Shown: positions 28,837-31,176 of the stretch, piece after piece
Numbering within the stretch: the stretch's first letter is position 1
How the letters are laid out: every line of letters begins with the position of its first letter
IMG/VR virus record: IMGVR_UViG_3300045988_149737
Reading direction: 5' to 3' (one strand)
Origin: a virus
Lineage: Duplodnaviria; Heunggongvirae; Uroviricota; Caudoviricetes
DNA length: 64,000 nt
Notes under the pieces: model-generated
The model's database searches: none
The model's input: the letters and a program-made list of their open reading frames with translations, nothing else
Told to the model about the DNA's origin: nothing
Position numbers and translations under genes: made by a program

Positions 28837-31176
28837 ATGGCAAAAGGAAAATCCGCACTGGCACTTGCTCTGAAAAAGAAAATCGGTAGCAACGACGAAA
28901 TTCAGAAAGTAACTCATTGGATTGACACAGGCTTTCCTCCGTTAAACAAAGCTATTTCCGGTCGTTACGATGGCGGTTTCCCATGTGGTCGTATCGTCGA
29001 AGTATTCGGGCCGCCAAGCGCGGGGAAATGTGTTACCGCAGACACCATGCTGCTGACGGAGCGTGGAATGGTAACAGTGAAAGAGTTGTTTGAGATTGAA
29101 GGGTACAAAGCGACATGCACTACTCGCGATGTAGAGCATAACGTTGGACTCATCAATGAAAATGGCGTGATAGAGAAGACCTCACACCTGACATGGAACA
29201 ACCGTCGCAAATTCAAGCGTATTAAGCTGGCATCAGGCGGTTATATCGAGGCTACGTTCCGTCACCCAATCCGTGTGGTTGACGACTTAGGTAATGTCGT
29301 CTGGCGACATGCTGAAAAAATCAGTGTAGGCGACACGATTCCTTCAATGGTTGGCACACATCAATTCGGCGATCAGCACCTGGATGCCAATATCGCAAAA
29401 CTGATGGGCTATTTAATTGCTGACGGATACGTGGCCTCTGAAAATTCAGTGAATTTTTCTAACACAGATCCTTTCATCAAGGATGAGTACTACCGCCTCA
29501 TTTCGCTGGTATCAGACAAGATGCCAGTTACGAGAAAACATAACGGCTCGGAAGACCATGTGCTGTTTAGCAAAGAGGTGCGTTCGCTGCTTTTTAAAGA
29601 ATATGGTCTGGAGTATGAGAAAGCTGCTGGCAAGCAGGTTCCGTTGAGTGTGCGTCGCGCCAATAGCGAGGCTCAAATTGCATTCCTTCGCGGCTACTTT
29701 GAGCTGGAATGCCACGTCAATGATGGTCGCTGCATTGAGGTTGTGAGCGCGAGTGGGCTGCTGCTACAGCAAATTCGCCTCATGCTCCTGAATCTGGGGA
29801 TTACGTCAACTGTCTCTGAAAAACACGTCGCGGGTTATGAAAATACATATTACCGGCTGTCATTCAGTGGCTCTAATTACGACCTTTTTCTGTCAACGAT
29901 TGGTTTCGAATCTCCGGCACGTTTATCAGTGGCAACCAAACGGGACATTGGTTTTGACCGCACTTACTCAGGCTATGTTCCGCACATCAGCGGCTTAGTG
30001 AAATCACTCTACGAGTCGCTCACCAAGACCACCCGTGAAGACTACGCTCTGGTAGACCACGTTATTGGCCGCGGCGATCGTGTCGGAATAGACAAACTGC
30101 GAGAAATCTATGTCTCCTTCATTGGCAGAAAGAATCGTTTTAACGAGCATCTGTTTGCAGAACTGGCAGCGGTAATTGGCTCTAACTTGTTCTACGACGA
30201 AGTCGTGGCTATTGAGGAAGGTGAAGCACCAACGTTCGACGTAGCGATGCCGGAAACACACTCTTTCTGGTCTAACGGGATTATCAGCCACAACACATTC
30301 CTTGCAACAGCAGCAATGATCTCCGCACAGAAACAAGATGGTCTGGCGGTATTCCTCGATCATGAGAACAGTTTTGACGTTGGCCTGGCTGTAGCCAATG
30401 GCCTGAACGCAGATGAGGATGACGGTCAGTGGGTATACAAGCAGCCAGATACCTTCGAAGACTCTGTAGAGTTGATCGGCACAATACTTAAATTGGTTCG
30501 TGATGAAGAGCTTATCCCCGAATCAGCACCTATCTGTATCGTGGCTGACTCTCTTGCGTCTATGGTTCCGAACTCCAAAGCCGAGAAGTTCGAAAAGATG
30601 GCTGAAGGCACTGCCAAAGACAAAGATCAGCTAAACATGAACGACAATACGGCACTGGCTCGTGCGACGAGTGCGAACTTCCCTACTCTGGCTTTGTGGG
30701 CACGCAAATACAACGCCTGCATCATCTTCTTGAATCAGGTTCGCACAAAAATCGGTGTAATGTTTGGCGACCCTACTACGTCGCCAGGTGGAGATTCACC
30801 GAAGTTCTACGCTTCTGTACGTATCCGTCTTGGTGCATCGGTGATGAAGGATGGTAAAGAGAAGATCGGCCAGGACGTAGGCGCAGAATGCATCAAAAAC
30901 AAAGTTGCACCACCGTATGGCAAATGCACCTGGAAATTCTACTTCGATCCTACTCGTGGCCTCGACGTTATCGAATCGCTCGTCGAGTACATGCTGGAAG
31001 AAGGATACCTGCCAAAGAACGCCAGCGGGCGAGTTGAAATTGGTGACAAGAAATACACCAAATCGCAGATCGTCGAGATGTATCGGGAGAAGCCACTGGC
31101 TGAAATCATTGCGGCTTTGCAGGCAATCGACGACCGAAGAGCAAAAGACAACCCCACCGAGTCAGTAGAAGAGTAA
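28837..31176 (+). CDS. RecA-like recombinase interrupted by an intein
   Basis: Exteins give GPPSAGK|TFLATAA (Walker A) and IFLNQVRTKIGVMFGDPTTSPGGDSPKFYASVRIRLG; 779-aa precursor, about 357-aa spliced product. Confidence 0.8.
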   Translation: MAKGKSALALALKKKIGSNDEIQKVTHWIDTGFPPLNKAISGRYDGGFPCGRIVEVFGPPSAGKCVTADTMLLTERGMVTVKELFEIEGYKATCTTRDVEHNVGLINENGVIEKTSHLTWNNRRKFKRIKLASGGYIEATFRHPIRVVDDLGNVVWRHAEKISVGDTIPSMVGTHQFGDQHLDANIAKLMGYLIADGYVASENSVNFSNTDPFIKDEYYRLISLVSDKMPVTRKHNGSEDHVLFSKEVRSLLFKEYGLEYEKAAGKQVPLSVRRANSEAQIAFLRGYFELECHVNDGRCIEVVSASGLLLQQIRLMLLNLGITSTVSEKHVAGYENTYYRLSFSGSNYDLFLSTIGFESPARLSVATKRDIGFDRTYSGYVPHISGLVKSLYESLTKTTREDYALVDHVIGRGDRVGIDKLREIYVSFIGRKNRFNEHLFAELAAVIGSNLFYDEVVAIEEGEAPTFDVAMPETHSFWSNGIISHNTFLATAAMISAQKQDGLAVFLDHENSFDVGLAVANGLNADEDDGQWVYKQPDTFEDSVELIGTILKLVRDEELIPESAPICIVADSLASMVPNSKAEKFEKMAEGTAKDKDQLNMNDNTALARATSANFPTLALWARKYNACIIFLNQVRTKIGVMFGDPTTSPGGDSPKFYASVRIRLGASVMKDGKEKIGQDVGAECIKNKVAPPYGKCTWKFYFDPTRGLDVIESLVEYMLEEGYLPKNASGRVEIGDKKYTKSQIVEMYREKPLAEIIAALQAIDDRRAKDNPTESVEE
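29029..30294 (+). mobile_element. intein with LAGLIDADG homing-endonuclease domain in the RecA P-loop
   Basis: In-frame 422 codons starting at Cys codon 29029 and ending SHN (Asn codon 30292-30294) before Thr; LAGLIDADG blocks LMGYLIADGYV and FLRGYFELECHV. Confidence 0.75.

Follow-up and report, generated by a model that had tools for sequence, protein, structure and literature searches.

P-loop ATPases, including RecA and RadA, are favoured hosts of inteins (PMC4760082), and the bond between the lysine of the Walker A motif and a nucleophilic threonine is the "classic" P-loop intein site (PMC5050341). The intein of Pyrococcus horikoshii RadA sits in the P-loop of this archaeal RecA-family recombinase (PMC5790916), and the TerL1-a inteins of mycobacteriophages lie between the Walker A Lys and Thr in a phage gene, in this case that for a terminase of actinobacterial phages (PMC5050341). 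Here we describe an intein at this site in the RecA-like recombinase gene of an SSU5-like phage-plasmid, represented by IMG/VR record IMGVR_UViG_3300045988_149737 (Caudoviricetes); "the window" denotes the whole stretch of 64,000 nucleotides that was analysed. We consider it highly probable that the insert is a genuine class-1 P-loop intein with a LAGLIDADG homing endonuclease, and we propose both protein splicing and homing for it.

The intein belongs to a well-known class: its K/T P-loop site (a slash marks the insertion bond throughout) is the classic one, and related RecA P-loop inteins are already abundant. An exhaustive search yielded 190 cluster representatives (50% identity) at E <= 1e-30; among the best 147 of these 190, 91 have RecA-like exteins, and GxxxxGK/C is seen in 83 of the 91. 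Uncharacterised RecA P-loop inteins such as P0014, P0007, P0009 and P0012 share the insertion point GxxxxGK/C ... SHN/T with the present intein and are homologous to it in all blocks, but they are no more than 48% identical to it (the value for P0014, the nearest relative outside the SSU5 group), most of them reside in true bacterial RecA with its C-terminal domain, the endonuclease core is gone from several, and none is from an SSU5-type element. The RadA inteins of P. horikoshii and Thermococcus sibericus also occupy the P-loop of a RecA-superfamily recombinase and superpose on our model in the HINT domain (4e2t), but they are archaeal mini-inteins that have no endonuclease and no close sequence relation to ours past the HINT fold, and experiments have shown that they splice conditionally. 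The RecA inteins of Mycobacterium tuberculosis (PI-MtuI) and M. leprae sit in the central region of RecA, not in the P-loop. They share a RecA host with the present intein, and the M. tuberculosis splicing domain matches the HINT part of our model (2imz). The family NF007072, "intein-containing recombinase RecA" of the mycobacterial type, scored 101.7 against a cut-off of 1024, a match that comes solely from the RecA portions and from generic portions of the intein, and the insert is therefore not the mycobacterial RecA intein allele. Outside the SSU5 group, the closest inteins among deposited phages are those of the helicases of Twort-like Staphylococcus, Listeria and Bacillus phages and of the RecA of Bacillus phage fHSPT3 (31-34% identity over 422 amino acids [aa]), a much more distant group in which the extein is mostly a helicase and the hosts are Gram-positive. 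The intein described here is unusual in being native to E. coli, Klebsiella and Enterobacter plasmids and in the clean population signature of recent homing, with very little flank co-converted, that it bears. In the literature on inteins in SSU5/pHCM2 phage-plasmids and in Enterobacteriaceae, the main survey being taken without its supplementary tables, no description of this intein was found.

Anatomy of the intein and its host recombinase

A preliminary description of the window had read a 779-aa open reading frame (ORF) as RecA-like only after removal of a 422-aa insert, and the boundaries that it gave are exact to the base (Table 1). The insertion is in frame and at a conserved site, between Lys and Thr of the Walker A motif (GPPSAGK/T, with TFLATAA resuming after the insert), and uninterrupted homologues exist. 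In Pfam, the precursor matches the RecA family PF00154 in two separate stretches, and with the insert removed in a single one (2.2e-42, 145.8 bits vs a cut-off of 27). The joined exteins restore GPPSAGKT and align without a break to E. coli RecA, which reads GPESSGKT at this point; GRIVEVFGPPSAGKTFLATAA is the stretch aligned over the junction. The C-extein holds the Walker B region and a highly conserved L2 loop (NQVRTKIGVMFGDPTTSPGG), and RecA chains in the PDB match the joined exteins at 1e-31 to 1e-35. The joined protein falls below the cut-off of the bacterial RecA equivalog TIGR02012 in NCBIfam (153.7 vs 325.3) and has no match to the RecA C-terminal domain PF21096 in Pfam, from which we take it to be a RecA-like phage recombinase and not an orthologue of cellular RecA. 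It matches phrog_97, "UvsX-like recombinase", at 1e-91, although the solved UvsX structure is matched at 2e-9 as compared to 1e-35 for RecA; phrog_9666, which the precursor matches over 779 of 779 positions, carries the PHROG label "unknown function". Together with a gp32-like single-stranded DNA-binding protein (SSB), a 5'-3' exonuclease and a UvsY-like mediator gene known from the Cyrano annotation, it makes up a T4-style recombination module, in which it is the RecA-like strand-exchange protein.

Table 1. Coordinates, in the window, of the intein, its host gene and associated features
Feature	Position	Strand	Remarks
Precursor ORF	28837..31176	+	RecA-like recombinase plus intein, 779 aa, 86.5 kDa
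N-extein	28837..29028	+	aa 1-64; ends in Walker A GPPSAGK (aa 58-64)
Intein	29029..30294	+	422 aa / 1266 nt, 47.5 kDa; HINT domain split by LAGLIDADG endonuclease domain
Block A	29029..29046	+	Cys1 (C-V-T-A-D-T), N-terminal splicing nucleophile; ORF Cys65
Block B	29254..29265	+	T76-F-R-H79 (TxxH; relatives TxNH)
First LAGLIDADG motif	29401..29427	+	LMGYLIADG; catalytic Asp132
Second LAGLIDADG motif	29683..29712	+	FLRGYFELEC; Glu227
Blocks F and G	30229..30294	+	PTFDVAMPETHSFWSNG-IISHN (Asp404, His411, His421, Asn422); Asn422 is ORF aa 486
C-extein	30295..31176	+	aa 487-779 plus stop; +1 Thr is first and completes GKT
5' half of 17-nt core	29020..29028	+	GCGGGGAAA; common to all intein-bearing alleles
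3' half of 17-nt core	30295..30302	+	ACATTCCT; common to all intein-bearing alleles
gp32-like SSB	26535..27563	+	upstream of the precursor ORF
5'-3' exonuclease	27573..28568	+	upstream of the precursor ORF

The insert is a class-1 intein with a HINT fold and an embedded two-motif LAGLIDADG endonuclease domain. PF14890 (Intein_splicing) covers the whole of it (46.4 bits vs a cut-off of 35.8, 4.6e-12) and PF14528 (LAGLIDADG_3) its residues 215-292 (63.9 bits vs 22.5, 1.7e-17); its ends, which had been described as canonical, score above the cut-offs of the NCBIfam models TIGR01445 (intein_Nterm, 35.4 vs 24.5) and TIGR01443 (intein_Cterm, 17.0 vs 15.6), and the intein portions of NCBIfam models for many archaeal and bacterial intein-containing proteins match it as well. 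Every canonical splicing block aligns with its relatives, block F being PTFDVAMPETHSF (including PTFDV...THSF) and block G being IISHN, followed by Thr. The two LAGLIDADG-like blocks noticed at the outset were confirmed, and Glu227 of the second is aligned with the catalytic Asp of PI-PkoII. Of the profile comparisons that had been suggested, RecA for the exteins and intein and LAGLIDADG for the insert gave matches.

An AlphaFold2 model of the intein, built from eight sequences, has a predicted local distance difference test (pLDDT) value of 80.5 and a predicted template modelling (pTM) score of 0.86, with pLDDT mostly at 80-97 for residues 200-300. Its best PDB match in Foldseek is the TliVMA intein (7qss; E 2.8e-20, template modelling [TM] score 0.71), followed by PI-PfuI (1dq3), PI-PkoII (2cw7) and PI-SceI; mini-inteins, those of P. 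horikoshii RadA and M. tuberculosis RecA included, cover the HINT part only and I-DmoI the endonuclease part only. The four full-length intein-endonucleases share the HINT plus LAGLIDADG architecture with the model, at TM scores of 0.61-0.71 for TliVMA, PI-PfuI and PI-PkoII and 0.44-0.47 for PI-SceI, but they are only 9-22% identical to it and have other exteins and targets. An Rfam scan of the window found tRNAs only and no intron. A foreign base composition of the intein was considered and rejected, since its guanine plus cytosine content is 0.483 as compared to 0.494 in the exteins. The intein has four cysteines, at residues 1, 30, 228 and 235.

On this anatomy we propose the following course of events. 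Translation, for which an AAAGGAG ribosome-binding site lies 5' of the ORF, would give the precursor with a broken ATP-binding loop. Cys1 would then undergo an N-S acyl shift, the +1 Thr would attack the thioester, and Asn422 would cyclise with the aid of His421 and of residues in blocks B and F, releasing a recombinase with GPPSAGKT restored (357 aa, predicted mass 39.0 kDa) and the free intein. In a cell that harbours two related elements, the intein, either freed or still within its precursor, would cut the intein-less allele at the insertion site, and repair from the intein-bearing copy would insert the 1266 nt together with only ~10-17 nt of flanking sequence.

Occupied and empty alleles and the signature of recent homing

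The recombinase gene of the window is 98-99.6% identical to those of Escherichia phages PhiR41_1 and Cyrano and of many ~110 kb plasmids of E. coli, and the window is collinear with Cyrano. As the preliminary description had proposed, relatives were compared for an empty target site, and such sites were found in near-identical elements: phages CMS-2020a and SSU5 have a 0-nt gap at the insertion bond (...GGGAAA/ACC...), whereas in Cyrano and in Klebsiella phage p4727 this bond is interrupted by 1266 nt. The CMS-2020a protein and the joined exteins are 100% identical. Of 5426 complete E. coli genomes, 250 have the recombinase gene, every copy being on a plasmid; 114 of these 250 carriers (~46%) have the intein and 129-130 have a continuous empty site. 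In PLSDB, the gene is matched by 721 plasmids and the intein by 237-248, about a third as many; the intein is found in eight named genera and is at least 90% identical throughout (Escherichia 123, Klebsiella 71, Enterobacter 41, Citrobacter 6 and a few others); the intein was matched in none of the 63 gene-matching plasmids of Yersinia and in one of the 42 of Salmonella.

These frequencies bear on the notion that the intein was recruited to serve as a post-translational switch, keeping the recombinase off in the plasmid state and releasing it in lytic growth or under stress. Given where the insert sits, in the ATP-binding loop, the precursor is an obvious off state, and Cys30, which is near Cys1 and conserved in most relatives that keep the N-terminal part, could on the strength of that conservation pair with the catalytic Cys1 as a disulfide. 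Splicing of the P. horikoshii RadA and M. tuberculosis RecA inteins is reportedly conditional on redox state, temperature or single-stranded DNA. For RadA and RecA inteins, the literature does document conditional splicing (PMC4760082; PMC5790916). However, about half of near-identical elements lack the intein, which is thus dispensable, and selfish homing fully accounts for the pattern; we regard a co-opted switch as very improbable.

Homing between related elements, which had been put forward as something the endonuclease could drive, fits what is seen in the population data. Between the window and p4727, synonymous divergence (dS) is 0.09 for the intein as compared to 3.1 and 1.84 for the exteins, and over 116 pairs of intein-bearing IMG/VR sequences the mean distance is 0.158 for the exteins and 0.024 for the intein. 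Both alleles occur in each of three extein lineages that are separated by at least 10%, and when the sequences are clustered at 1% distance, six of the ten clusters with occupied alleles also hold empty ones. The 17-nt core GCGGGGAAA/ACATTCCT (-9..+8) is found in all intein-bearing alleles whatever their background and in none of 71 empty sites in IMG/VR. In exact-pattern scans of IMG/VR, the +1 codon is ACA in 28 of 28 occupied sites as compared to 3 of the 71 empty ones, where ACC (42) and ACG (26) prevail (Fisher p = 1e-21 for ACA vs ACB). In the Klebsiella-type background, the empty site reads AGT GCT GGT AAA/ACC TTC CTG and the occupied one AGT GCG GGG AAA/ACA TTC CTG, with changes at -7, -4 and +3 only, all of them to the state of the E. 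coli-type occupied allele. Low intein dS, extein lineages of mixed allele type and the shared core together indicate recent homing, and sequence comparison points to a recent spread of the intein between elements of E. coli, Klebsiella and Enterobacter. The core is presumably the minimal co-converted flank and part of the endonuclease target, and the pattern is that expected of a site-specific break repaired off an occupied donor, with a co-converted tract of only ~10-17 nt.

The three rare empty sites with ACA (IMG/VR L014-L016) have the sequences GCAGGGAAA/ACATTTCT and GCCGGCAAA/ACATTTCT, and they differ from the intein-type core at -7 and +6, and one of them also at -4. A cluster of synonymous differences on the N side (-19..-7) had appeared to mark the two alleles in the first seven that were compared (Fisher p = 1e-5), and it was dropped on wider sampling, as GGT, CCT and AGT occur there in both classes, for example in the intein-bearing pAMPD01 and pYPE3; the flank marker that is left is the inner core at -9..+8, and +3 above all. 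An origin of the empty alleles by precise loss of the intein was likewise rejected, since the intein-type 17-mer is absent from all 71 empty sites, and in the E. coli genomes the best continuous site is 93.8% identical to a synthetic precise deletion.

Maintenance, decay and alternative readings

The residues C1, T76, H79, D132, E227, D404, H411, H421 and N422, both acidic residues of the endonuclease included, are kept in 19 of 19 comparable full copies, among which there are 12 distinct intein protein variants. The ratio of non-synonymous to synonymous substitution rates (dN/dS, omega) is 0.17 for the intein (binomial p = 1e-7), with fewer non-synonymous changes than expected under neutrality. 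The use of dN/dS in the exteins as proof of splicing was rejected, because the exteins had for the most part diverged before the intein arrived and the ratio therefore has little to tell about function after invasion.

Two of the readings that compete with an active homing intein can be weighed here. One takes the insert for a permanent domain that does not splice, or for a disrupting insertion, that leaves the recombinase dead, as might be gathered from the labels "LAGLIDADG family homing endonuclease" or "hint domain-containing protein" that PGAP often gives to the whole protein. It is at odds with splicing residues that are intact in every full copy, with an insertion that is in frame and precise to the codon, with a frame that is uninterrupted in all 22 full-length copies from IMG/VR (L109 among them has an in-frame deletion of two codons at intein nt 881-886) and with 19 synonymous changes as compared to one non-synonymous change between the C-exteins of the window and Cyrano; we give it almost no credence.

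The other is that the intein splices and its endonuclease is inactive, so that it has spread passively through general homologous recombination and clonal expansion. The elements carry a RecA/gp32/UvsY/exonuclease module of their own, the second LAGLIDADG motif has Glu in place of Asp, and the related bacterial RecA inteins P0007, P0012 and P0013 have visibly decayed endonuclease domains. On the other hand, recombination that does not start at the site should leave long tracts of variable length, whereas the shared flank ends ~10-17 nt from the insertion point in three diverged lineages, and omega for the endonuclease part is 0.20 (p = 1e-4). We consider passive spread unlikely, and an active homing endonuclease remains our preferred reading. 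Several points weigh against that preference: the splicing chemistry, the inactivity of the precursor and the cleavage of DNA are steps that we infer; the dN/dS of the endonuclease domain is derived from 25 substitutions only; the second catalytic acid is Glu and not Asp, although Glu in this role is known from active LAGLIDADG enzymes; the recombination module of the elements themselves could move the intein with no help from an endonuclease; and the allele counts come from redundant public collections and do not represent independent samples.

A more speculative extension would combine a conditional switch, for example a redox switch through Cys1 and Cys30, with the persistence of empty alleles as synonymous escape variants that resist the endonuclease, for which ACC or ACG at +1 and the varied bases at -7 and -4 would be the candidates. 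We hold this combination to be improbable; if both of its parts were true, an arms race would be under way at this locus in clinical Enterobacteriaceae.

PLSDB also has a few decayed or altered inteins: CP059946.1 (H199) has an insertion of ~780 nt inside it, and NZ_CP075717.1 (H229) and CP057895.1 (H230) have remnants that cover 46% and 19% of it, respectively.

Database names and other features of the window

Proteins nearly identical to the precursor go under a variety of names in the databases, mostly "LAGLIDADG family homing endonuclease" and otherwise "hint domain-containing protein", "recombinase RecA" or "hypothetical protein"; some RefSeq records already read "intein-containing recombinase RecA". 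In hundreds of deposited plasmids, misnaming of this kind masks a core recombination gene of the SSU5-type phage-plasmids. To our knowledge, E. coli and its relatives are generally regarded as lacking inteins; the one described here is a native enteric intein, borne on plasmids in 114 of the 5426 complete E. coli genomes and also in Klebsiella and Enterobacter, both of which go unmentioned in a 2021 review of inteins in human pathogens. The many near-isogenic alleles with and without the intein, the short co-conversion and a tractable host make the locus convenient for studies of homing and of escape at the target site.

Directly upstream of the recombinase gene is a 90-aa ORF (28562..28834, +) that stops 2 nt before the recombinase start codon; its position is kept in SSU5 and in E. 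coli plasmids, where it is annotated as "hypothetical protein", and it has no Pfam family. Elsewhere in the window, a 254-aa ORF (4328..5095, -) encodes a LEM-3-like GIY-YIG nuclease domain (PF22945, 5.5e-7) and lies in a segment (~4274-5196) that Cyrano lacks; a homing endonuclease that stands alone, or some other small mobile insertion, may be represented here. Four clustered tRNA genes (Asn-GTT, Tyr-GTA, Thr-TGT and Ser-TGA) are located at 12902..13555 (+), three of which are found at the Rfam gathering score; the Cyrano annotation has Asn, Thr and Ser tRNAs only, and positions 12979-13453 of the window do not align to Cyrano. Two further segments are unaligned to Cyrano, namely 14342..15535, which holds a 202-aa ORF (14465..15073) with no significant family, and 23530..23737, which is inside the gene (21334..24852) for a 1172-aa DNA polymerase III alpha subunit.

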